Sequence record: OR352955.1
From: Escherichia phage AV125
Length of the DNA: 64,000 nt
Strand: one strand, 5' to 3'
Shown here: piece by piece, positions 29,706-43,915 of the stretch
Position numbering within the stretch: position 1 is the stretch's first letter
Layout: the number at the start of each line of letters is the position of its first letter
Position numbers and translations under genes: made by a program
The notes under the pieces: generated by a model
Databases searched by the model: none
Seen by the model: the letters and a program-made list of their open reading frames with translations, nothing else
Told to the model about the DNA's origin: nothing

Positions 29706-32700
29706 ATGGCAACATTCCCAACATATCCAGCAACGTCTCTCGAACAGGGCGTAGACCTGGTTATTTTCTCATCTAACCAACTCCATGATGTTATTAATGG
29801 AAGTGCTACAGAGAGTATTGAAACAGAATCAGGGTTGATACCAACCCTGAGAAAAGCCCTTGTTGACAACTTTTTCTTTAAAAGCCCATTGGATTGGGCG
29901 CAAGGCACAAACGAAACAGTTTTTAACCAACTTCGTTATTTCCAGAATGGAGTGTTGAGTGGTTATTACTATGCGCCTAATGCTACACTGGTAAACCCAA
30001 TTCCTATGCAAGGGACTCCAGTAGGAGATAACAACTGGGTATTGTGGGGACTGAAGACAGAACAACTAGCAACAGAAGTCACCCCTTGGGTATATTCTGG
30101 TGCAACTGGTTATGAAACAGTAATCAGTCCTCCCTACATCTTTGATAGTGCTATTGTTACAATCAATGGTGTTATTCAGGTTCTGGGAGAAGCTTTCCGC
30201 ATAGAAGATAGTAAAATCATTTTATCTGAACCTTTGGGACATGATCCTGCAACAGGACTGCCAAACAAGCTTTTTGCCTATATTGGTAAAATCGTAGCTT
30301 CCGCAGATACAGATCCTAACTTAGAAAACCGTCTTGTCAGTTTAGAAACAAAAACTGAAGAACTGACAGAAAGCATGGATAAAGTACCTTTACAAACTAT
30401 TGCTCGTAAATACGGTTTGTTGGATGATGAAGTAGCTTACGCAACAGCGGGTCAATCATTAACAGGGATTAAAGCTCTGTATGATCCAGTAGCACAATCT
30501 TCCTACACATTGCCTCCTAACATCACAGGGACTTTAACATCTTTGTCTGTTTCTGGAGTAATGACTTATTCTGGCGGATCTGTAGATCTTTCTGCATTAG
30601 CTGTTGAACGTGGACAGTTTGTTCATTTGCCTACAAGCTTTGGTAATAATGTAACTCTGACAGCTAAAAATCAGACGATTGGACGTGGTGCTGGTCGTTA
30701 TCGTTGGGCTGGAAGTTTACCAAAAAGTATTTTGGCCTCTGACACGTTAGAGACAAGTGGTGGATTAGGTCCAAACGCATGGGTTCTAACTAATACGGAA
30801 GGACTGTTAACCCCTCGTGGTGGAACATACAACGATTTATTCGATGTTGTCTACTTGTCAGAATTTGCTAACAATACAACTACCTATACCACACCAGAAG
30901 CAGCTTTCCAGGCGGCACTGTTAGCAGCAAAAGCTTCGAAAAGTAAGATTCTCGATGCTTACGGTTGCGATATGACTTTCACGACAAGCTCTTTTGATAT
31001 TCAAGGTATCACTTTGCGTGGTGGTGTGTTCCGTGGTCAACGCGACTATCGTGTGCAGAATGCTACAGTAGAAGGCACAACTTTCCGTAACTCTCGTGTT
31101 ATGTATTGGGGTGGTGCTGTGCGCATGTTCGATTGTTTGTGGGACGGTGCTCCTCGCGCAGGTCAAGTTGGTAGCTTGGTATTCCAAGGCAACCCAATAT
31201 CAGGTACTTTTGAAATTGATAATTGTACTTTTAAAAACGGGTTATATGGCATCCTTCAACAAGGGACAGGAGAACCAGTAACACGCGGTGTCTTCCGTAA
31301 CCTTACCTTCATGGACATGCAAGGTGATGCGATAGAACTGAACGTCATCAATAAACATTATGATGATGGTTGTGTGATTGAGAATATTTACCTGTCTAAT
31401 ATCGATGGGACTAACGCTCCTATTCCTCTGTCCAACTGGGGTATCGGTATCGGTGTAGCTGGTAAAGGACCATATGGTTACGGAATCCCTGATGATCAAT
31501 ATTGCAAGAATATTACAATTCGTAACGTTTTTGCAAAACGTTGCCGTCAGATTGTCCACGTAGAAGTTGGTCGTAATATTTCTATCGAAAACATTCATGG
31601 CGATCCAGATCAAACCGTATCTGTTGGGACAGGTTTGGCAACTGGCGCAGTTGTAATGTATGGAAGTAAAGATTTTACGATTGACGGTGTTTATGGAGAG
31701 CCTAAAACAGACGGTAGCACACTTGCAAGTAATATCCGTATGATTTATTTGGAGTGGGGAACTAACGCAGTTCTGGACGAAGAGGGTAATCCGGTAGTTC
31801 CGGCACAGGGTAGACCTTCAAACCCATGTTTTAACTATTCTGTTCGTAACATTCACACCAAAACTGGGCGTGTTTTTGCGGGAGTTTCCGCTGGGCCAGG
31901 TTATGAAAACAGAGTTAGCTTTGAAAATATTCGTTGCGCTGCATTGCAGTTGTTCGGTATAGCTTCTTGGCTTTCAATGTCTAACATCACCTGTAATATC
32001 TTCGATTGTGTTGGTCAACCTGAATCTGGTCCAGGAACATTTTATGATGGATTCTTCCGTAGAGAAAAATCTGTTCTTGAAATGGTTAACGTAAACTGTT
32101 ACCCAGATGGCAAGACGATGGTTACTGGTCGTCCACAGTGGAGCCGTTGCCGTTACTCGGATATTCATCGTGTCAACTGTAATGTTGAAGCTAATATGTA
32201 TACCAATATCGCAGGTGGTATTGGAGCTATTGTAGGGACAACGGGCAAAGTTTATTACTTAGAGCCTAATCCTAGTCGAAACATTGATGGAATGCATTTC
32301 CCAACAGGGAAAGAGTTTGACAAAGGTGATATGATAGTCAAAGCGGATAATACGTTCTTCCTTGTAACAACAAGTGGGGCATATATTCCAGATATCCCAG
32401 CTTTCGGTATTCGAGCTACACAGGCAGGAGATACCTTCCTGACACAGAACTTGACTCCTAACGGGACAGCAACAAATGCTTCTTGGTTGTATCATTACCC
32501 TCTGTCAGCAGGGACACGTATCCGTATTCCTGGTGCTGGTGTAGGTGGAGCAGATTTGGACACAGTTATTACTCGTGCACCTTATCAAGATAATGATACG
32601 TGGACTAACCCAGTTAAAATAGACATTGCAGATCCAATTGTAACGCCTACAAGTGCTGGAGTTAGAATTAAAACCATACCTAATGATTCCAGTAATGTTT

Positions 32701-32759
32701 CTGTAGGTAATACTGCGGTTATTCGCCCAACGCCAGTAGTAGATGTGCCAACAACCTAA
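29706..32759 (+). CDS. Tailspike/tail fiber (1017 aa) with beta-helix-like region
   Basis: Internal module RYRWAGSLPKSILASDTLETSGGLGPNAWVLTN shared with two other fiber genes; beta-helix-like repeats (ITIRNVFAKRC, ISIENIHGDP, SVRNIHTKTG); followed by a terminator. Confidence 0.5.
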   Translation: MATFPTYPATSLEQGVDLVIFSSNQLHDVINGSATESIETESGLIPTLRKALVDNFFFKSPLDWAQGTNETVFNQLRYFQNGVLSGYYYAPNATLVNPIPMQGTPVGDNNWVLWGLKTEQLATEVTPWVYSGATGYETVISPPYIFDSAIVTINGVIQVLGEAFRIEDSKIILSEPLGHDPATGLPNKLFAYIGKIVASADTDPNLENRLVSLETKTEELTESMDKVPLQTIARKYGLLDDEVAYATAGQSLTGIKALYDPVAQSSYTLPPNITGTLTSLSVSGVMTYSGGSVDLSALAVERGQFVHLPTSFGNNVTLTAKNQTIGRGAGRYRWAGSLPKSILASDTLETSGGLGPNAWVLTNTEGLLTPRGGTYNDLFDVVYLSEFANNTTTYTTPEAAFQAALLAAKASKSKILDAYGCDMTFTTSSFDIQGITLRGGVFRGQRDYRVQNATVEGTTFRNSRVMYWGGAVRMFDCLWDGAPRAGQVGSLVFQGNPISGTFEIDNCTFKNGLYGILQQGTGEPVTRGVFRNLTFMDMQGDAIELNVINKHYDDGCVIENIYLSNIDGTNAPIPLSNWGIGIGVAGKGPYGYGIPDDQYCKNITIRNVFAKRCRQIVHVEVGRNISIENIHGDPDQTVSVGTGLATGAVVMYGSKDFTIDGVYGEPKTDGSTLASNIRMIYLEWGTNAVLDEEGNPVVPAQGRPSNPCFNYSVRNIHTKTGRVFAGVSAGPGYENRVSFENIRCAALQLFGIASWLSMSNITCNIFDCVGQPESGPGTFYDGFFRREKSVLEMVNVNCYPDGKTMVTGRPQWSRCRYSDIHRVNCNVEANMYTNIAGGIGAIVGTTGKVYYLEPNPSRNIDGMHFPTGKEFDKGDMIVKADNTFFLVTTSGAYIPDIPAFGIRATQAGDTFLTQNLTPNGTATNASWLYHYPLSAGTRIRIPGAGVGGADLDTVITRAPYQDNDTWTNPVKIDIADPIVTPTSAGVRIKTIPNDSSNVSVGNTAVIRPTPVVDVPTT

Positions 32760-32820: not shown

Positions 32821-34845
32821 ATGAATTTAACAAGACCTAATAGTGCGATAGCCGATCTGGTAGAAGCTACTTATCGAAAACGTCGCAGCTTTGAGGCAGG
32901 TTTTACATTACGTAATTCCCGTGAAGTTTTGCTGTTAGCAGCAGAAGGGAATTATTACCAATGGAAAGGAACTTTTCCTAAAGTGGTTCCAGCAAACTCT
33001 ACGCCAGCCACCACAGGTGGTATTTCTTCCCTTGCATGGCAAAGTGTTGGGACCGCTGATGATATAGCAATTATCAATGCCAAGTTTACGGCAATGCAGC
33101 AACAAATTGATGATCTGTCGGAAACAATACCTGAAGCTGGTAAATCGGCTTATCAGATCGCACTTGATAATGGTTTTGTTGGAACAGAAGCACAGTGGCT
33201 TGCCTCTTTGAAAGGGGATACTGGTGCTCAACTTAATATTAAAGGATCATTAGCAAGTACTAGTGAACTACCATCCACAGGTAACGTTGCAGGGGATGGT
33301 TATATCGTAGGTGATGTAATCTACGCTTGGGATGGTTCTGTTTGGAAACTTATTTCTTCTCTTGGGCCAGAAGGTAAATCAGCTTACGAGGTATGGTTGG
33401 CAGATGGTAATACAGGATCTGTTTATGATTTCCTTACCTCTATAAAAGGTGATAAAGGCGATGTTGGTCCTACAGGGCCACAGGGAGCACCTGGTGTTAA
33501 CGCCAACGGTTTTGATTATCGTGGAGATTTGCCTTCTACAAGTAACTTACCACAACCTACCTCTGAAAACGTAAGCCAAGCTTATTCTATCAATGGTAAT
33601 CTTTATGTCTCTAATGGGACAGCTTGGGTCAACATGGGTAATATTGTTGGTCCTCAAGGTCCACAAGGCGAGGCAGGAAAAGACGGTCTAGATGGAACAG
33701 ATGGAGATGAAGGGAAATCTGCATATCAAAGTTGGCTGGATGCTGGTAATGAAGGGACAGAAGTAGATTTTATTGCCTCACTTAAAGGTCCAAAAGGAGA
33801 CAAGGGTGATCAAGGAGAGCGAGGTCCACAAGGTGAACTAGGTCCACAAGGACCAGTGGGTGCAACAGGATCAGGCTTAGAGATTATCGGGGTTCTGAAC
33901 AGCGAAGCTGAACTTCCTCCGACTGGAGAAGTAGGTGACGCATATAAAATTAATAATGATTTATATGTTTGGGTCCAAGATGCTACGGAATGGATGAATG
34001 TTGGCAGTCTTGGAGGAACATCAATTACAGCTAAAGGTCATGTTCCGAACAGTGAAGCTCTCCCTGTTTACAATAACTATGGTGATGCTTACTTAACTGA
34101 AGACACTAGTAATCTTTACATCTATACCTACGATCAAGACACCAATTCCGCATCTTTTGTTGACATGGGAAGTATTAAAGGCGACAAAGGTGAAAAAGGG
34201 GATAAAGGAGATAAGGGTGATCCTGGAACAAACGGAACCAACGGTACTGATGGGACCAACGGTAAGGACGGCGCACAGTGGTTTGTAGCAACAACTAATC
34301 CAGTCGCAGGAGACGGTGTTATCAATGATTACGCCTTCAATACTACCACTGGAGCAGTGTTTAAGAAAACAGATTCTTCTACGTGGACGCTTATAGGCAC
34401 TCTTCCTAGTATACCAGAAGCCCCTCAAGACGGCTTGACGTATGGTAGGTCTGATGGAAATTGGATCGAAATATCAGGATCAGATCCTACGGAAGCTATA
34501 ACACCAACTAGAGTTACAGCAGGTTTCATGGAACTTGAAACAACTACTGCCAACTCTGGAGCATCTTGGACTCCTTCTGGAACTTCCAATATGTATGTTG
34601 TTACAGTAACTGACGCTCTGACAGTTGGAGCATGGCCTGGTGTCACTGGCTCTACAAAACCTAAAGCGTTTTCAGCAATGATTTATTTGATTCAAGATAC
34701 AACGGGACACACGGTTACACTAGATGCGTCTTATGGAGCACTAAATGATACAGAAATAGCAACTACTGCTAACGCAGTAACAATTTTGCAATTAACGTAT
34801 CCTGGTGTGGGTGATATCGTGGACATGGTTGTTGTAACACGATAA
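32821..34845 (+). CDS. Tail fiber with collagen-like G-X-Y repeats
   Basis: Motif FPKVVPANSTPATTGG near the N-terminus; three GKSAY-x-WL-x-G-x-G repeats; several G-X-Y tracts (GPQGPQGEAGKDGLDGTDG; KGDKGEKGDKGDKGDPGTNGTNGTDGTNGKDG). Confidence 0.55.
   Translation: MNLTRPNSAIADLVEATYRKRRSFEAGFTLRNSREVLLLAAEGNYYQWKGTFPKVVPANSTPATTGGISSLAWQSVGTADDIAIINAKFTAMQQQIDDLSETIPEAGKSAYQIALDNGFVGTEAQWLASLKGDTGAQLNIKGSLASTSELPSTGNVAGDGYIVGDVIYAWDGSVWKLISSLGPEGKSAYEVWLADGNTGSVYDFLTSIKGDKGDVGPTGPQGAPGVNANGFDYRGDLPSTSNLPQPTSENVSQAYSINGNLYVSNGTAWVNMGNIVGPQGPQGEAGKDGLDGTDGDEGKSAYQSWLDAGNEGTEVDFIASLKGPKGDKGDQGERGPQGELGPQGPVGATGSGLEIIGVLNSEAELPPTGEVGDAYKINNDLYVWVQDATEWMNVGSLGGTSITAKGHVPNSEALPVYNNYGDAYLTEDTSNLYIYTYDQDTNSASFVDMGSIKGDKGEKGDKGDKGDPGTNGTNGTDGTNGKDGAQWFVATTNPVAGDGVINDYAFNTTTGAVFKKTDSSTWTLIGTLPSIPEAPQDGLTYGRSDGNWIEISGSDPTEAITPTRVTAGFMELETTTANSGASWTPSGTSNMYVVTVTDALTVGAWPGVTGSTKPKAFSAMIYLIQDTTGHTVTLDASYGALNDTEIATTANAVTILQLTYPGVGDIVDMVVVTR
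33448..34270 (+). repeat. Collagen-like G-X-Y triplet repeat region, coding
   Basis: Four interrupted G-X-Y tracts encoded within the 32821-34845 gene. Confidence 0.5.
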
Positions 34846-34849
34846 CAGA

Positions 34850-34874
34850 AGCCCCGAAAGGGGCTTTCTTTTTA
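34850..34874 (+). terminator. Rho-independent terminator after collagen-like fiber gene
   Basis: Stem AGCCCC / GGGGCT with loop GAAA, followed by TTCTTTTTA. Confidence 0.65.
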
Positions 34875-34886
34875 TGGAGGGTTTAA

Positions 34887-37559
34887 ATGTTTCCAATTCC
34901 AATATTTACTATTATGACCAGCACTGGTGTCGTTCCTCTGCCAGCAGGTATTGTTAAAAAAGTAATCACTTTAGATTACCCAGATAATGCTGGTAATTCT
35001 AATAGCAGTTTAGCAATTTTGCTTAATGATGGTAGATTGTTTACTCAAGGCGCAAACCTTTTTGGTGAGATTGCAGATGGAACTCGTAGTGCACGATTCA
35101 ATAATTTCCACTTAGCTTCTACTGTAGTAGCGGATGTGTTTACCGCAGATCGTTGTTTTGTTATTAAAACTAACAGTGGAGGATGGCAATATTCAGGATT
35201 GACAGCAGGATTGGTAGGATCTATAGCAGCAGGTGGTACGGACGCATGTGTAACTACTTGGACCAGCTTTCCATCTGTAATAACAGGGACTATCTCTTTA
35301 GCTAATCTTAAAGAGGTTAAGGGAGGATATAACAATACTCTCTGGTTAATGAATAGTGGTGTTCTTTATGGATCAGGTCAAAACACAGTAGGTAGTTTAG
35401 GTGCAAGTACTACTAACGAAGTTTCTACTCCTCGTCAGATAACAAGTGCAGCAGTTGCTTTTGATGCAGGTTACAACCAATGTTCTTATGTCAACAATGT
35501 GGGAACCTTGCGTGTTTGTGGAGCCAGTAAAGGTTTAGCAGGTAATAATAACACAACAACAGCTTTTGTCAATGCCAAGATATCCGCTACTGAAACAGTG
35601 TATGTCAAAGATTACATCAATACAGTTTCCCAGACAATAGTTGTAGGAGATACCTCCGGTGGCACGGGTGCAGTAAACTACTTATATGTTAGATCTAATA
35701 CAGAAACAACCTATACTAAACTGGATACCTTTGCAGCAGGTTTCTCAACATGGAAATTTCCACCAAGCCGCCACTCTTTTTTCGTTGGGATCAATAATTC
35801 CTTGTGGGCTATTGGTAAGAACTACACTGCAAACTTAGGTTTGGGGTATGATTCTGCGAGCGGAGATCCACTTCAAGTGGGAAAACCAGTTAAACCTGAA
35901 GGAGTGGGTTCCTGGGATATAAACAAGCTCACAAGCGTTCATACGCTGAATATGGATGTTACTAACCAATTAGGTTATCAAGGAACCTTTTTCGTTTATA
36001 ATGGAGATATGTATTATTCCGGTATTTGGAAAGATGGGAAAGCCTCGTATCTGTTCAATAGCGGTCTAAACTATAATAAATTCACACCAATAGCAAGCTC
36101 TGTGATTACAGGGGATGTGCTGGCAACTAGCTTAACTACAGATTCTTTAGGAATTTGTATTGTAGGTGGAACTAAACAGTTGACACATTCTGTTAGCCCA
36201 GAAGGAGGTAAACTTTTCAATATTAAATACACTTCTTCTGCCCCTGCAAACATGACAATATCATCTACTGGTTTAATGACTTTCCATGCAGAAGGTGGTT
36301 TTGATGCAGGTATGACATCCTTAAACGCTGAAGGAACAACTTTATCAGATACCTCTGGAGGATATGCTTCAACATTGAGCGTTTACACCCCTAGCTTATC
36401 TGCGATGGATGTAGGAACAACACAAACAATGGTAGCAGAAATAACGCCAACAGGAGCAGCAAGCTTACCTGGCATGGTTGTTGAGTATACAACTACAGAT
36501 CCTAGTGTTGCTACAGTAGATCCTACAACTGGTGTAATAACTGGTGTTGGTGATGGTGGTTGTAGGATTGGTTGCACAGCTACGTATCAAGGTGTTGTTA
36601 CCGCTTCCGATAGTTCTTATTTAACGGTGAATGCTGTTGCGGGAAAGGAGTTAGCTCCATCTCCGAGTAGTAGTTTAACGGTTCTAAACGGATATTTCAA
36701 CCACTCGGCAGATGGGGCAATTACGTTCCCAATTTTATCGGGTACTGTCACACCAGCTAACTTTGTAGTTAAGGTGGATGACGTTGTAATACCTTCAAAT
36801 AAAGTAATATTTAGAAATAAAGCTTTCTCTACAGTGGATAGTTATCCAGCAGGAGAATATAGACTGGCTATTGAATTTGCAAGTGCTTCAGTAGTGAATA
36901 GTGTTGATGTGTCTATGGAAGCAAATCCAAATCTTTTAGAATTATGGGGCGGCAACAGAATTGGTTATTCTACAAGCCCAGCCTCACAATTCTTAAAAGG
37001 TTGTGCTAACTTAAGACGAATAACTTCTGATTGTTTTAGTAACACATCTTACACCGGAACATCTATAAGTGGTATCTTCTCTGGCTGTACAAGTTTGACA
37101 GCTATCCCTGAAGGTTTATTCAGTGATACTTTATTTCCTTCAATGACAACAATGTCAAGCACGTTTGAAGGTTGTACATCTTTAACATCTATTCCTTCAG
37201 ATTTATTTAAGAATCTATCAAAAGTTACAAGATATTCTTACACCTTTAAAGATTGCACGTCTCTTGCAGAAGTTCCAGCAGGAATGTTTGATAATATTCC
37301 AACGAAAGTGACCTCTTTAACAGCTACATTCCAAGGTTGTTTAGCACTTACAGATTTTAATAAAATCTTTAATGACAACCCAGGGTTAACTGTTTGTGGT
37401 AAACGTGGAGCATTATCTTCTTTCTTTAGTGGATGCACAAATCTTACAGGAACAGGAACAACATTAACAAATACATTAGGCGGAGTAGCTAATAGTTACC
37501 TATTCAGGTATTGCACAAAACTTTCTGATTATAACAACATTCCTTCCAATTATAAATAA
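34887..37559 (+). CDS. Tail fiber-like protein with Ig-like (Big_2-type) and BspA-type leucine-rich repeat regions
   Basis: Ig-like segment TTDPSVATVDPTTGVITGVGDGGCRIGCTATYQGVV; C-terminal repeats of the form F-x-GCTSLT-x-IP (FSGCTSLTAIPEGLF, FEGCTSLTSIPSDLF, FKDCTSLAEVPAGMF, FQGCLALTDF); 890 aa. Confidence 0.45.
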   Translation: MFPIPIFTIMTSTGVVPLPAGIVKKVITLDYPDNAGNSNSSLAILLNDGRLFTQGANLFGEIADGTRSARFNNFHLASTVVADVFTADRCFVIKTNSGGWQYSGLTAGLVGSIAAGGTDACVTTWTSFPSVITGTISLANLKEVKGGYNNTLWLMNSGVLYGSGQNTVGSLGASTTNEVSTPRQITSAAVAFDAGYNQCSYVNNVGTLRVCGASKGLAGNNNTTTAFVNAKISATETVYVKDYINTVSQTIVVGDTSGGTGAVNYLYVRSNTETTYTKLDTFAAGFSTWKFPPSRHSFFVGINNSLWAIGKNYTANLGLGYDSASGDPLQVGKPVKPEGVGSWDINKLTSVHTLNMDVTNQLGYQGTFFVYNGDMYYSGIWKDGKASYLFNSGLNYNKFTPIASSVITGDVLATSLTTDSLGICIVGGTKQLTHSVSPEGGKLFNIKYTSSAPANMTISSTGLMTFHAEGGFDAGMTSLNAEGTTLSDTSGGYASTLSVYTPSLSAMDVGTTQTMVAEITPTGAASLPGMVVEYTTTDPSVATVDPTTGVITGVGDGGCRIGCTATYQGVVTASDSSYLTVNAVAGKELAPSPSSSLTVLNGYFNHSADGAITFPILSGTVTPANFVVKVDDVVIPSNKVIFRNKAFSTVDSYPAGEYRLAIEFASASVVNSVDVSMEANPNLLELWGGNRIGYSTSPASQFLKGCANLRRITSDCFSNTSYTGTSISGIFSGCTSLTAIPEGLFSDTLFPSMTTMSSTFEGCTSLTSIPSDLFKNLSKVTRYSYTFKDCTSLAEVPAGMFDNIPTKVTSLTATFQGCLALTDFNKIFNDNPGLTVCGKRGALSSFFSGCTNLTGTGTTLTNTLGGVANSYLFRYCTKLSDYNNIPSNYK

Positions 37560-37561
37560 GA

Positions 37562-37590
37562 AAAGGAGCCAAATGGCTCCTTTCTTTTAT
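37562..37590. terminator. Bidirectional terminator at the convergent junction
   Basis: 9-bp stem AAAGGAGCC / GGCTCCTTT with loop AAAT, flanked by A-rich sequence upstream and T-rich downstream; between the end of the plus-strand fiber gene and the end of the minus-strand HNH gene. Confidence 0.6.
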
Positions 37591-38018
37591 TCAGCGTTCA
37601 ACCCTTCACCATGTTCTTGATGCCAAGCCTCATGGTGTAGAGGGCACAGCCATAGAACATCTAACGGTTTATCATAATCACAATGATGAGCATGAACATC
37701 AACAGACCCACACACTTGGCAAGGTTGTTTTACTAACTTTCCATCTCGGAGTGCGTTACCAACTAAAACGTGAACACTACGCTTCTTGGGATTCTTTTCT
37801 TGCCAACGTTTTTTAGCCGCGTCCGCTTTATCCTTTCCTTTTCCTTTTACATACTTTTCTTTTGCTGCTTTACGATTAGGGTCTTGATCTCGTATACGGT
37901 CACGTTCTTTTAAGCAAGCTTTACAGGACGCCGTATAGCCATCTTTAGAAGCCTTCCTTACTTGGAACATGTTGAGAGGCTTTTCAGCCCCACAACACGA
38001 GCATAACTTACTGATCAA
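37587..38018 (-). CDS. HNH homing endonuclease (free-standing)
   Basis: C-terminal HNH motif HAHHCDYDKPLDVLWLCPLHHEAWH; N-terminal Cys cluster CSCCG...SCKAC. Confidence 0.6.
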   Translation of the reverse strand: MISKLCSCCGAEKPLNMFQVRKASKDGYTASCKACLKERDRIRDQDPNRKAAKEKYVKGKGKDKADAAKKRWQEKNPKKRSVHVLVGNALRDGKLVKQPCQVCGSVDVHAHHCDYDKPLDVLWLCPLHHEAWHQEHGEGLNAE

Positions 38019-40582: not shown

Positions 40583-43500
40583 TCAATGACAGGATGCCCA
40601 GGAATTACCCACATCATATCCGGCAGTAAGCTGAACGTTAAGATTGTAAAATTCTCCAGCCTTAGTAACAGCTAAAGCAGCAAGTTCACCTGCCCGACTA
40701 TAGGCTGTAAACCATCCACCTTTGGGAGATTCATGAATGTTAGCCCAAATTTGCCCTGTCTCTTTTTCCTTATTATGCTTCCATTCTTCGACTTTAGCAA
40801 GACATTCTTTATCAATTTTCTTTTGTTCTTCAGGATCGTCTACTTTCTTCCAACCTAATGATTCAGGTGAAAACCATTTGAATTCTACAAGGTTACGAGA
40901 AACTTCAAGCTGGGCTTCATCGTGGTATGCAATCATTTGTTGCACGAAGTCTTTATTCTTCCAGTCATCTTTAAAGAAGTCAACACTTAGCCCTTCTTCT
41001 TCGATCATGTCGTCATAAATAACCATTGCACGTTTAGCACAGATAACCCCACCACTTTGGAACAGAGAGTTAAGAATCGCGTGAGCAGAACGAGTAGGAA
41101 CCTTACGACCGTCAATACCCAAAACATACTGTTTACCAGTCTTAACCCAGAAATCGTTTAAACGTTCTTTAAGACGCGCCAGTGGGAATGCAGCTTCCCA
41201 GAAAGCATCGAACACCAGTTGCCCTGTGTATTTATCGCTACCAATTGTTTTAGCAACCTTGTCTGCTTGTGCACCATAAGTGATCCCGTATTTAACAGAT
41301 TTCGCCGGACTACGTTCAAACTTACGCCCAATAGTATCTGTAATACGTTTTGCCATCATGGTATGAACATCGTTAGGCTTCTCTAACAAGAGAGCGTTAC
41401 AGTATTCATGAGGCTCCGGTTCGTAGCGCCAACAGTTTCCTGTGATGGTAATGCAGTCTTTCTGACGCATGACCCACGTACCAAGTTCTGTTTGTGGACA
41501 CCAAACATCCTCTACACCCCACTCTTCAATAGTCAAACTTTGAACAGGAATGTGAGAGCGGTTAGTCAATGTTGCCACTTTTACTTTCTGCTCTTTTGTA
41601 TTGAAAGCTACAGAGATATTGCCTCCATGCACCAGGTACGAGGCAGTTAAAGCTGCTTCAAAAAGTTCACCTGGGTTCTGCGCCCAACGCCAAACAGGTT
41701 TTTGTTTATGTTCATGCCAGTAACCATCTGCAATCAAGAAACCTTCCAAGAAAGCTACACGCTCGGCATGAGACATATTAACTACACGCTCTACCCACGG
41801 AACATCCCATTTACCTTGTTGAACAGAAGTTAAACTATTTACCTGATCTTGTTCCATGTTAAATGGAGCATTACAAATAATATTATCTCCTGTGCAAAGA
41901 TCGGCAGTTGTTCTGACTTTAGGCACATAAGTATTCCCTTTACTACGGGTATTAACATACCAACGGTGATCTGCTGTTGCACGGTAAGTGTGTGATTTCC
42001 CTTTAATCTCAAACGTCTTACTATTTTTATAGAAGACCTTACCTTTTACTTTAGTCCATTCTTTCATACCTGTTTCAGCATTGTACCCTAAAATCTCATC
42101 CCCTTCCTTCAGGTCGTGATATCCTACCCAACCTTTACGAGTCAAAGCTTGAGCATCCATCGGCACACAGTAATGCGACTCAATCTTTGCTTCCAAAGAG
42201 TCGAAGTCATAACCGATCTGGAAGTATTTAGGAACCTCTACACCAAACAAGTTACGCATCTCCCATCCAAACAAAGATGTGACACGAGGAATATTAGCTA
42301 CAGACCTATGCTTCATACGAGAGGTTGCAGCATCACATGTAGCTGCTGGGGTAGGAATACGACCATCCGCCCTTACTGCGGCTAAGAAACCTTTATCGTA
42401 TTCTTGATCTTCTTCGTCTTCTTCCCAATCGGCACCACCACCTAAAATAGAGTTCCTACGGTGTTTATACGTTAAGTATTCTACAATCTGTGTAGCATAA
42501 GGAAATTTCTCACCCAAAGCTTGCAGGTTAGGACAAATTTCTTTTTCCTGACCTTTGGTAAAACATGGGTTAGTCAATACTTTAAGACCGCGACCTTTAC
42601 CTTTTGCTATACGCTCTTGAATCTTCCTTTCCAAGGTTTCCGGTGTGCACTCCAGATGATCACAACGATCCTGACAAAAATTAGAAGATAGAGTTTGCTC
42701 AACGTAAGCTCGAATACCTTTCTGAAGTTCTTCCTCGCTCTTTTTAATCTTGGTGCCAGATTTAAGAGTCAAGTCTTTATCTTTATATTCAGACGGTACC
42801 CAACCTAACCCTACAAGCCAGTTTTTAATATGGGTTGTATCGTTCAATGTTGCAGGGATATTAGGATCACACAAAGGCTCATCTGCTGCAACTGGCAGTT
42901 TCCACTCTTTCCCCAACATAACTAACCACCAATCTCCATCCCTCTCTTCCAAATGACCATCATGTTTCTTAGCAAAATTGATCATATGGTTAGTTGGCTC
43001 TAAGTTCTTTTTAATTTGCAACTTAGGTGGAATAAAAGCCTTAAGATAGCCTTTTGTTGCTGGTTTAGGTGGCAAAATAGGCTCAACGAGTAAACGAAGA
43101 CGCTCCATTTCTGCATCCAAAAAAGCAAGGTTCTCTTCTGCTTGCTTCATGTTAAAAGCAAATCCACGGTGTTCCTGGCGTGTAATAATGTCTGCTACAC
43201 GTTGTTCAAGTTCAAATGGACCTTCCCATTTATCATAATCACCCCACTCTTCCATAAGGTAATTATATACGCTTGTATTAGCTTTGTTGTCATAGATACA
43301 GTAATAAAGCATATCCGCAGCAAAAGTCTTAAATCGATCTTCTTCTGGAATCTCTTTACGGAAATCTATTTTTACATCACCACCTGCTTTTCGAGAAAGT
43401 GCTGCCAAGCTATGTCCTGATTTGCCCTCAATCTTTCGATCTGGGTTTAACACTTTACTCAAAATCAAGGAGTCAATAAGTTTTACCTTATTTTTGCCCC

Positions 43501-43915
43501 ACGTATTATATTTAACACTGTAATCTAATCCATAAAACAGTTTTGTAGCCAACCAGTCGTAGTTGATACCGTTGTGAGCCACAGCCATTTCAACCAGATA
43601 TTCAGGCTTGTCTTCAAAATAACCTTCATGATTAATAAAGTCTGGGAAATCTTTTAGTTGAAAATGCGTGTAATCTTGCGCCACATACTCTTTAAGAACA
43701 TATGTGTATTTACCATCTGACTCTTCATAAGGACGCCCATCAAAGATGTATTTAGGGCCATCGTGGAAAGCTACTATTTCTCCTGTTTCATGGTTCTCTA
43801 AGACAATACAGTGCATTTGAAATGTGTCTTTGAGACGATAAGGACTAGCTAAATAATCAATAGTGTCATTATTCAACAATCCGTTTGCTTCAATATCCCA
43901 TGTAAACTTACTCAC
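40583..43915 (-). CDS. Family A DNA polymerase with 3'-5' exonuclease domain, interrupted by an intein-like insertion
   Basis: Exo I motif DIEANGL; polymerase motif A DFDSLEAKI, motif B RSPAKSVKYGITYG, motif C YHDEAQLEV; about 245 extra residues between motifs A and B; GTG start overlapping the upstream stop. Confidence 0.75.
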   Translation of the reverse strand: MSKFTWDIEANGLLNNDTIDYLASPYRLKDTFQMHCIVLENHETGEIVAFHDGPKYIFDGRPYEESDGKYTYVLKEYVAQDYTHFQLKDFPDFINHEGYFEDKPEYLVEMAVAHNGINYDWLATKLFYGLDYSVKYNTWGKNKVKLIDSLILSKVLNPDRKIEGKSGHSLAALSRKAGGDVKIDFRKEIPEEDRFKTFAADMLYYCIYDNKANTSVYNYLMEEWGDYDKWEGPFELEQRVADIITRQEHRGFAFNMKQAEENLAFLDAEMERLRLLVEPILPPKPATKGYLKAFIPPKLQIKKNLEPTNHMINFAKKHDGHLEERDGDWWLVMLGKEWKLPVAADEPLCDPNIPATLNDTTHIKNWLVGLGWVPSEYKDKDLTLKSGTKIKKSEEELQKGIRAYVEQTLSSNFCQDRCDHLECTPETLERKIQERIAKGKGRGLKVLTNPCFTKGQEKEICPNLQALGEKFPYATQIVEYLTYKHRRNSILGGGADWEEDEEDQEYDKGFLAAVRADGRIPTPAATCDAATSRMKHRSVANIPRVTSLFGWEMRNLFGVEVPKYFQIGYDFDSLEAKIESHYCVPMDAQALTRKGWVGYHDLKEGDEILGYNAETGMKEWTKVKGKVFYKNSKTFEIKGKSHTYRATADHRWYVNTRSKGNTYVPKVRTTADLCTGDNIICNAPFNMEQDQVNSLTSVQQGKWDVPWVERVVNMSHAERVAFLEGFLIADGYWHEHKQKPVWRWAQNPGELFEAALTASYLVHGGNISVAFNTKEQKVKVATLTNRSHIPVQSLTIEEWGVEDVWCPQTELGTWVMRQKDCITITGNCWRYEPEPHEYCNALLLEKPNDVHTMMAKRITDTIGRKFERSPAKSVKYGITYGAQADKVAKTIGSDKYTGQLVFDAFWEAAFPLARLKERLNDFWVKTGKQYVLGIDGRKVPTRSAHAILNSLFQSGGVICAKRAMVIYDDMIEEEGLSVDFFKDDWKNKDFVQQMIAYHDEAQLEVSRNLVEFKWFSPESLGWKKVDDPEEQKKIDKECLAKVEEWKHNKEKETGQIWANIHESPKGGWFTAYSRAGELAALAVTKAGEFYNLNVQLTAGYDVGNSWASCH
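41435..42169 (-). other. Intein-like insertion (Hint domain with a single LAGLIDADG-like motif) within the DNA polymerase
   Basis: Begins with Cys583 right after motif A (ESHY|CVPMDAQ); TxxH block (TADH); LAGLIDADG-like AFLEGFLIADGYW (nt 41723-41752); ends ...ITGN followed by Cys828 as +1 nucleophile. Other family A polymerases have about 30 residues here. Confidence 0.5.

Follow-up and report, generated by a model that had tools for sequence, protein, structure and literature searches.

The last gene of the + strand tail-fibre cluster of Escherichia phage AV125 encodes an 890-amino-acid (aa) protein, predicted to consist of a chain of globular domains ending in a short array of leucine-rich repeats (LRRs). 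We analysed this gene within a 64,000-nt stretch of the phage genome (OR352955.1; hereafter the window), to which all nucleotide coordinates refer, while aa numbers are those of the 890-aa protein. AV125 is a Phapecoctavirus (Stephanstirmvirinae), an Escherichia coli myovirus of ~150 kb resembling phAPEC8, ESCO5 and tuntematon. The open reading frame (ORF) list and its translation place the gene at 34887..37559 on the + strand, with an ATG start and 890 codons followed by a stop, exactly as an earlier note on this DNA had it; direct reading of the sequence adds a Shine-Dalgarno motif, GGAGG, 6 nt 5' of the ATG (34876..34880, + strand). Full-length copies with 97-99% nucleotide identity are present in 33 phage records, where they are annotated as 'tail protein' or 'hypothetical protein'. 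Over its full length the product matches PHROG 11922 'tail protein' (1340 bits), and its homologue in ESCO5 is gp226 'tail protein'. The slot at the end of the cluster is conserved in AV125, ESCO5, Bas62, rV5 (gp27) and PVP-SE1 (gene 40), and its conservation extends across four phage groups. The protein has been named TfpM1 (890 or 891 aa) and reported missing from phi92-like phages, without any domain analysis (PMC12695924), and it has not been established which phapecoctavirus genes build which fibre, or which receptor each fibre binds (PMC8594841, PMC10844046).

We modelled the full-length protein with AlphaFold2 on a 37-sequence family alignment (mean predicted local distance difference test score, pLDDT, of 85.8) and its C-terminal 306 aa on 87 sequences (pLDDT 92.8, predicted template-modelling score 0.89). 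With high confidence, these models predict globular domains arranged as beads on a string: a beta-propeller, two Big_2 domains, a beta-sandwich and an LRR domain. The N-terminal ~30 residues (MFPIPIF...GIVKKV; 34887..34976, + strand), modelled with a pLDDT of 51-70, are conserved, since P3, P5, G14, P17, G21 and K25 are near-invariant among 37 homologues whose identity falls as low as 27%. This segment, a candidate for docking, is also kept in the internal-deletion variants with a recorded 5' end (P0164 and P0169, see below). It runs into a predicted RCC1-like, seven-bladed propeller (aa ~8-400; 34908..36086, + strand), which occupies nearly half of the protein and was overlooked in the earlier note. 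In this region, the Pfam RCC1 repeat (PF00415) scores 23.9 bits, above its cut-off of 21.7, and WD40_RLD (PF25390) 42.5 bits, below its cut-off of 150. The model displays seven four-stranded blades, mostly with a pLDDT of 85-95, and Foldseek retrieves UVR8, HERC, RPGR and RCC1 with E-values from 1e-14 to 1e-9 and target TM-scores of 0.6-0.7.

The earlier note had placed an immunoglobulin (Ig)-like segment of Big_2 type ahead of the repeats. Pfam Big_2 (PF02368) indeed scores 40.7 bits against a gathering threshold of 22.8, but in two stretches that AlphaFold2 resolves into two sandwiches, so that there are two tandem copies and not one. The first (aa ~410-495; 36114..36371, + strand) also matches Ig-domain structural proteins in PHROG; the second (aa ~498-582; 36378..36632, + strand) has its best Pfam stretch at aa 505-565. 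The pair is 64% identical to a pair found in phi92-like 'lateral tail fiber' proteins. Moreover, the Ig-like domains do not adjoin the repeats, as a separate beta-sandwich is predicted between them (aa ~598-690; 36678..36956, + strand; strands with a pLDDT of 86-97). This sandwich accompanies the LRR in all homologues of the same C-terminal type (type A, see below). Weak Foldseek matches of the model (68-88 aligned columns), with neck and tail proteins of phages and with the CBA120 TSP4 N-terminus, may concern this sandwich. Finally, a predicted BspA/DUF285-type LRR solenoid of seven units with a helical C-terminal cap covers aa 703-890 (36993..37556, + strand). Structure prediction, which had been proposed as a check, thus returns both the LRR and the Ig fold. 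By contrast, neither a Pfam match nor a predicted segment indicates a coiled coil, collagen or beta-helix shaft, and all 890 residues fall in globular domains. The term 'fibre' therefore suits the neighbourhood of the gene better than the build of its product: the tail role implied by the description 'fiber-like' agrees with the position of the gene, its PHROG assignment and the exchange of its C-terminus, whereas the predicted folds are globular, usually monomeric and without a shaft.

The repeats announced by the earlier note as F-x-GCTSLT-x-I/V-P units are real, although only three, FSGCTSLTAIP, FEGCTSLTSIP and FKDCTSLAEVP, come close to this consensus and the other four are degenerate. The motif [FLMY]xxCxxL occurs seven times (aa 703, 731, 760, 787, 815, 847 and 873), compared with a mean of 0.2 and a maximum of 3 in 5000 shuffles of the protein. 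Spacings of 28, 29, 27, 28, 32 and 26 residues do not follow the 26-residue period of DUF285/PARCEL repeats. The repeats were said to make up the C-terminal third; their 188 residues are 21% of the protein, and the rest of that third is the beta-sandwich.

Assigning the repeats to a family is less direct. No match to Pfam LRR_5 (PF13306, threshold 27.7 bits) was obtained with the full protein at E<=0.1 or with the C-terminal 306 aa at E<=0.001. Scores are 13.5 bits for DUF285 (PF03382; E 0.061, aa 752-818), whose cut-off is 25, and 17.5 bits for the TIGR02167 PARCEL repeat, whose cut-off is 30. As these direct scores are below threshold, the classification rested on intermediate sequences, a profile and the predicted structure. 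A search with the C-terminal 306 aa yielded 249 relatives, many with precomputed DUF285 or LRR_5 matches and one named 'BspA family leucine-rich repeat surface protein'. Among 87 aligned relatives, LRR_5 is matched by 28 (best E 3.5e-19) and DUF285 by 24, and the profile of this alignment ranks the solved LRR_5 proteins 4fs7 (4e-25) and 4gt6 (8e-20) before all other LRRs. With phmmer, an exhaustive search through 1.84 billion representatives returned 14,294 relatives at E<=1e-3 and, at the stricter limit of E<=1e-30, 789. They include many giant multi-repeat proteins, which is what one would expect of bacterial surface proteins, and the nearest non-phage relative that we examined sits among bacterial housekeeping genes. 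The earlier designation as BspA-type LRRs is thus correct at the level of the family cluster, through intermediates and profile, even though the sequence on its own falls short of both thresholds, that of LRR_5 and that of DUF285. The array is divergent and short, made of 27-29-residue units, and lies between the LRR_5 and DUF285 models.

The sandwich and the LRR together form a cassette that is swapped by recombination between phage lineages, as judged from sequence comparison, another feature missed in the earlier note. The C-termini of 40 homologues show that the shared sequence runs from aa 1 to ~585 and is followed by unrelated modules. Together with per-domain identities and the junction of a fusion variant described below, they place the cassette boundary at aa ~567-585 (...YQGVVTASDSSYLTVNAVAG; 36585..36641, + strand). 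Type A, the sandwich plus LRR of AV125, is found in 35 phage records at >=90% identity. In type B, which at the same cut-off accounts for 39 records including phiWec179, it is replaced by an unrelated ~300-aa module ending in ...GLKYYD, so that isolated phages are split about evenly between the two. In the 'lateral tail fiber' proteins of phi92-like phages, too, this Big_2 pair is followed by the type B module. Type C, a PKD-like domain with a canonical DUF285 array (145 bits), is carried by metagenomic phages (P0021-25) and by Citrobacter phage Tr1, and a fourth, unique module, type D, is known from one sequence (P0020). Many 140-150 kb contigs and Salmonella phages have no cassette, their proteins being short forms of 565-609 aa. 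Identities calculated per domain argue for horizontal exchange: in three homologues (P0008-10) the propeller is 99% identical to that of AV125 and the sequence after aa ~585 is unrelated, while in proteins of the Wecvirus lineage the cassette (89-92% identity) is closer to AV125 than the propeller (75-81%). In the corresponding slot of Tr1 (Stephanstirmvirinae), an 842-aa 'tail assembly protein' is followed by the type C module as an ORF of its own (351 aa; L010 6746-7801), the cassette here being split from its scaffold. Related LRR repeats end a 1008-aa tail protein encoded beside baseplate genes in a Klebsiella P2-like phage. The cassette DNA had no match in E. coli genomes or prophages, and we therefore found no evidence of exchange with the host chromosome.

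Directly downstream of the tail gene, on the - strand, lies a 143-aa ORF (37587-38018) with an endonuclease VII/HNH-like sequence (PHROG 2340, E 3e-40). It is carried by a ~420-nt insertion that ESCO5 and the metagenomic contig L002 lack. This ORF is sporadic, occurring in about six distinct phages, always in the same position and beside both type A and type B genes. It is probably a free-standing homing endonuclease, which might promote co-conversion of the neighbouring cassette.

Several variants carry deletions within the gene or across its 5' boundary. Metagenomic contig SRR10359460 (L002 8001-9191) runs collinear with the window apart from a deletion of 3.5 kb (window ~33064..36588). Through this deletion, aa 1-81 of the upstream collagen-like fibre, including its Tail_spike_N anchor, are fused in frame to aa 567-890 of the 890-aa protein. 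The junction of this product (P0041) lies at an imperfect microhomology, CAA(A/G)GTGTTG..ACCGCT. Seen once, the fusion may be genuine or may be a chimera created in assembly. We rejected the idea that it recurs, as the other ten members of its cluster proved to be pieces of the normal protein or different deletion variants. Two 610-aa proteins (P0164 and P0169), from two different near-complete phage contigs, have lost aa 196-471 in frame, and with them four propeller blades and the first Big_2 domain. This deletion falls exactly between the copies of the only exact direct repeat of >=13 nt inside the gene (35459-35471 and 36299-36311; TTTTGATGCAGGT). In a 573-aa protein from a 60-kb contig (P0011), both Big_2 domains are missing through an in-frame deletion of aa 422-578 (window ~36150-36620), so that the sandwich and LRR follow immediately on the propeller. 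These deletion variants do not, in our view, prove the cassette to be essential: a homology search favours in-frame products and half a propeller is unlikely to fold, so that these may be tolerated loss-of-function alleles.

The two genes upstream are classical fibrous members of the cluster. The first encodes a 1017-aa tailspike (29706-32759, + strand) assigned by PHROG to 'colanic acid degradation', with an internal Tail_spike_N domain (aa 302-361) and a weak beta-helix match; the second encodes the 674-aa collagen-like fibre (32821-34845, + strand), with an N-terminal Tail_spike_N domain and collagen triple-helix repeats. Between the latter and the gene of the 890-aa protein, a consensus scan located a terminator-like hairpin (34848..34867, + strand; 8-bp stem and T run). 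This putative terminator may reduce read-through into the 890-aa protein gene. A second hairpin found by scanning, directly 3' of the stop codon (37562..37583), is terminator-like on both strands and probably marks the end of the tail-gene transcription unit; in PVP-SE1, terminators are annotated on both strands at the same place, 3' of the homologous gene 40. Replication genes follow downstream, in convergent orientation on the - strand. Among the - strand genes, that of the DNA polymerase (40583-43915) is unusually long, with 1110 aa as compared with 859 aa in its Bas62 counterpart. A family A domain is detected only at aa ~845-1009, and a separate match to PHROG 17 covers aa 2-585, which suggests an extended or interrupted architecture. 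Proteins 90-96% identical to the 890-aa protein are recorded in ~150 kb genomes under the names 'Campylobacter phage B15' and 'Pseudomonas phage PsgM04F' (records including MG065650.1 and OR584014.1). These are phapecoctaviruses, and their recorded hosts look doubtful.

A conserved N-terminus combined with a swapped C-terminus is the standard pattern of receptor-binding proteins. Together with the position in the tail cluster, it suggests to us that the 890-aa protein has an accessory part in host recognition, its LRR forming an exchangeable tip, a reading to which we assign a probability of roughly 0.6. The protein would be incorporated in the virion as an accessory arm of a multi-fibre adsorption apparatus, with its N-terminus proximal and its LRR distal. 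The conserved N-terminal segment and the propeller would tether it to the tail or fibre complex or supply a second binding surface; the two Big_2 domains and the beta-sandwich would serve as a spacer arm; and the C-terminal LRR horseshoe would be the tip that binds a ligand on the bacterial surface. Alternation with unrelated C-terminal modules could then re-target one arm and leave the remaining tail undisturbed. The P0041 sequence and the Tr1 ORF suggest that the cassette can hang on another anchor or stand as an ORF of its own. Among the type A homologues, LRR variability analysed by repeat position peaks in the predicted beta-strand segment (0.91 vs 0.62 bits, p ~0.007), although these sequences are few and related.

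Genetic data on the Wec phages are compatible with such a role of the cassette, without being proof of it. phiWec188 and phiWec190, which have the 890-aa LRR type, lose infectivity on a yhaH mutant, whereas phiWec179, phiWec181 and phiWec186, with the 891-aa type B, lose it on an flhD mutant, and both groups require the WaaT-dependent core of the lipopolysaccharide (PMC12548472, PMC12695924). The phiWec190 protein (P0003) is 84% identical to that of AV125.

Other points weigh against the accessory-arm reading. The correlation observed in the Wec phages is confounded, since TfpL, another tail protein, is likewise different in the two groups, and YhaH, being an inner-membrane protein, is unlikely to be the direct ligand of the LRR. 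We found no sequence feature suggesting a trimeric fibre. In addition, the propeller, and not the LRR, is the most variable and fastest-diverging domain of type A proteins (mean entropy 1.10 vs 0.68 for the LRR) and could therefore be the adaptive binding surface. The polarity of the protein might then be reversed, with a lectin-like or enzymatic propeller binding the receptor and the cassette used mainly for docking to other fibre components, or for secondary, less important binding. Beta-propellers bind sugars in other phage receptor-binding proteins, such as the five-bladed Gp45 of the staphylococcal phage phi11, and the natural forms of 565-609 aa, which consist of propeller and Big_2 domains only, imply that the scaffold works without a C-terminal module. 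However, conservation is among the highest in the first ~30 residues, as would befit an attachment end, and it is at the C-terminus that wholesale replacement by non-homologous modules occurs. The P0041 fusion likewise has the cassette on the C-terminal side of a known N-terminal anchor domain, and the variants with half a propeller retain the cassette in frame. We regard this reading as unlikely.

The in-frame deletions that break the propeller in two near-complete genomes also count against the accessory-arm reading, as they indicate that the protein may be dispensable. Dispensability would suit an environmental adhesin that, in the manner of Hoc, holds the virion on mucus, biofilm matrix or animal surfaces through its Ig, propeller and LRR domains, increasing encounters without affecting the choice of strain. 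Big_2 domains are a typical component of accessory decoration proteins in phages, and the AV125 protein matches PHROG 215 'structural protein with Ig domain'. The wider LRR family comprises bacterial surface proteins from metagenomes, and in oral and gut bacteria LRR proteins of the BspA family attach to matrix proteins of the host. We nevertheless consider this role quite improbable, because the cassette type co-varies in the Wec phages with the bacterial host factor required, the gene is located in the tail-fibre cluster and not beside the head genes, and the exchange of discrete cassettes between lineages is a signature of host-range selection. A related and more speculative version of the accessory arm, which we hold to be about as doubtful, is that the LRR cassette is protein-specific, recognizing a proteinaceous and not a glycan receptor, or binds animal mucosa or matrix in the manner of bacterial BspA adhesins; the protein receptor or non-canonical target proposed in the earlier note is pure speculation. 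Alternation between types A, B and C would in that case switch one tail arm between chemically different classes of receptor, and the neighbouring endonuclease could aid the spread of the cassettes.

Incorporation into the virion has weak and indirect support. Mass spectrometry of rV5 virions detected gp27 with 3 peptides and 3.1% coverage (rV5 supplement). gp27, which shares the N-terminal ~190 aa, is a distant and much larger homologue. Our search of the literature for virion proteomics of Phapecoctavirus and PVP-SE1 retrieved no direct evidence of the protein in virions. Moreover, some phage BspA-type proteins, such as that of Goslar, are encoded outside tail or other structural modules. 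It could thus be argued that we are dealing with a non-structural or assembly-only protein, present at the end of the tail operon by chance, and the hairpin that separates its gene from the upstream fibre gene would be in line with this. Such a coincidence seems to us very unlikely, given that the slot at the end of the fibre cluster is conserved over four phage groups, that gp27 peptides do occur in rV5 virions and that PHROG places the family in its tail category. In addition, proteins of phi92-like phages that bear a lateral tail fibre annotation have both the Big_2 pair and the type B module.

The host ranges of phapecoctaviruses and their relatives are some of the broadest known among coliphages, and cocktails for therapy and biocontrol make use of these phages. 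A confident domain map is now available for the least-understood gene of their fibre cluster, and the cassette boundary at aa ~567-585 is a candidate site for engineering that provides a testable handle on host recognition. Should the LRR be shown to bind a defined ligand, it would add a new scaffold to the repertoire of phage receptor-binding proteins.

Part of what we describe was already known: the gene is annotated in dozens of genomes, and modular receptor-binding proteins with exchangeable tips are textbook knowledge. LRR proteins of this kind are not unusual in phages either. Proteins of the BspA/DUF285 type are present in 109 phage records, including those of Goslar (gp161), Aeromonas phage LAh10, Campylobacter phage CPt10, Synechococcus phage ACG-2014f, PAU and Lak megaphages, and several are already annotated as such. 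We found no relevant paper reporting a phage tail protein with an RCC1 propeller or with BspA LRRs, nor any description, in the searchable literature, of the LRR fold as a phage receptor-binding tip. The domain map, the divergent LRR as one of several alternative cassettes and the defined swap boundary appear to be new, as no paper describing them was found.

Compared with the BspA/TpLRR surface proteins of the LRR_5 family (solved structures 4fs7, 4gt6, 4h09 and TpLRR 6mlx), the AV125 protein stays below the LRR_5 threshold. Its units are longer, at 27-29 residues apart from a single one of 32 and a single one of 26, its array has only seven of them, the last three degenerate, followed by a helical cap, and it ends a protein of a phage tail cluster instead of being exposed on a bacterial cell surface. 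The 26-residue DUF285/PARCEL proteins ('BspA family leucine-rich repeat surface protein' in NCBI) are the best Pfam/NCBIfam match of the AV125 repeats; close relatives score above the DUF285 threshold, and the type C sisters carry an unambiguous array (145 bits) in the same slot. In AV125, however, the W/N-rich half-repeat 'w-d-t-s-n-V-t-n-M' is replaced by 'IP-x-G-L-F-x-N-x-x-x-V-T'. With the RCC1-like proteins UVR8, HERC2 (its RLD), RPGR and RCC1, the AV125 propeller has a seven-bladed fold in common but an identity of only 12-17%, and their functions in guanine-nucleotide exchange or UV sensing are not expected of it. A parallel in organization is offered by the modular lateral tail fibres and tailspikes of phages resembling rV5, phi92 and CBA120 (the 'nanosized Swiss army knife'), in which an exchangeable receptor-binding domain at the C-terminus is joined to a conserved N-terminal anchor. 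The AV125 gene lies in the same cluster and slot, and its product likewise has a conserved N-terminus followed by modules that are exchanged horizontally; with phi92-like 'lateral tail fiber' proteins it even has in common the Big_2 pair and, as an alternative C-terminus, the type B module. Those fibres are trimeric, built on beta-helices or on collagen or coiled coils, and often carry glycan-degrading enzymes and Tail_spike_N or XD anchor domains, whereas the AV125 protein, devoid of such a shaft, anchor or enzyme domain, is predicted to bring a propeller, Ig-like domains, a sandwich and an LRR to the same place.

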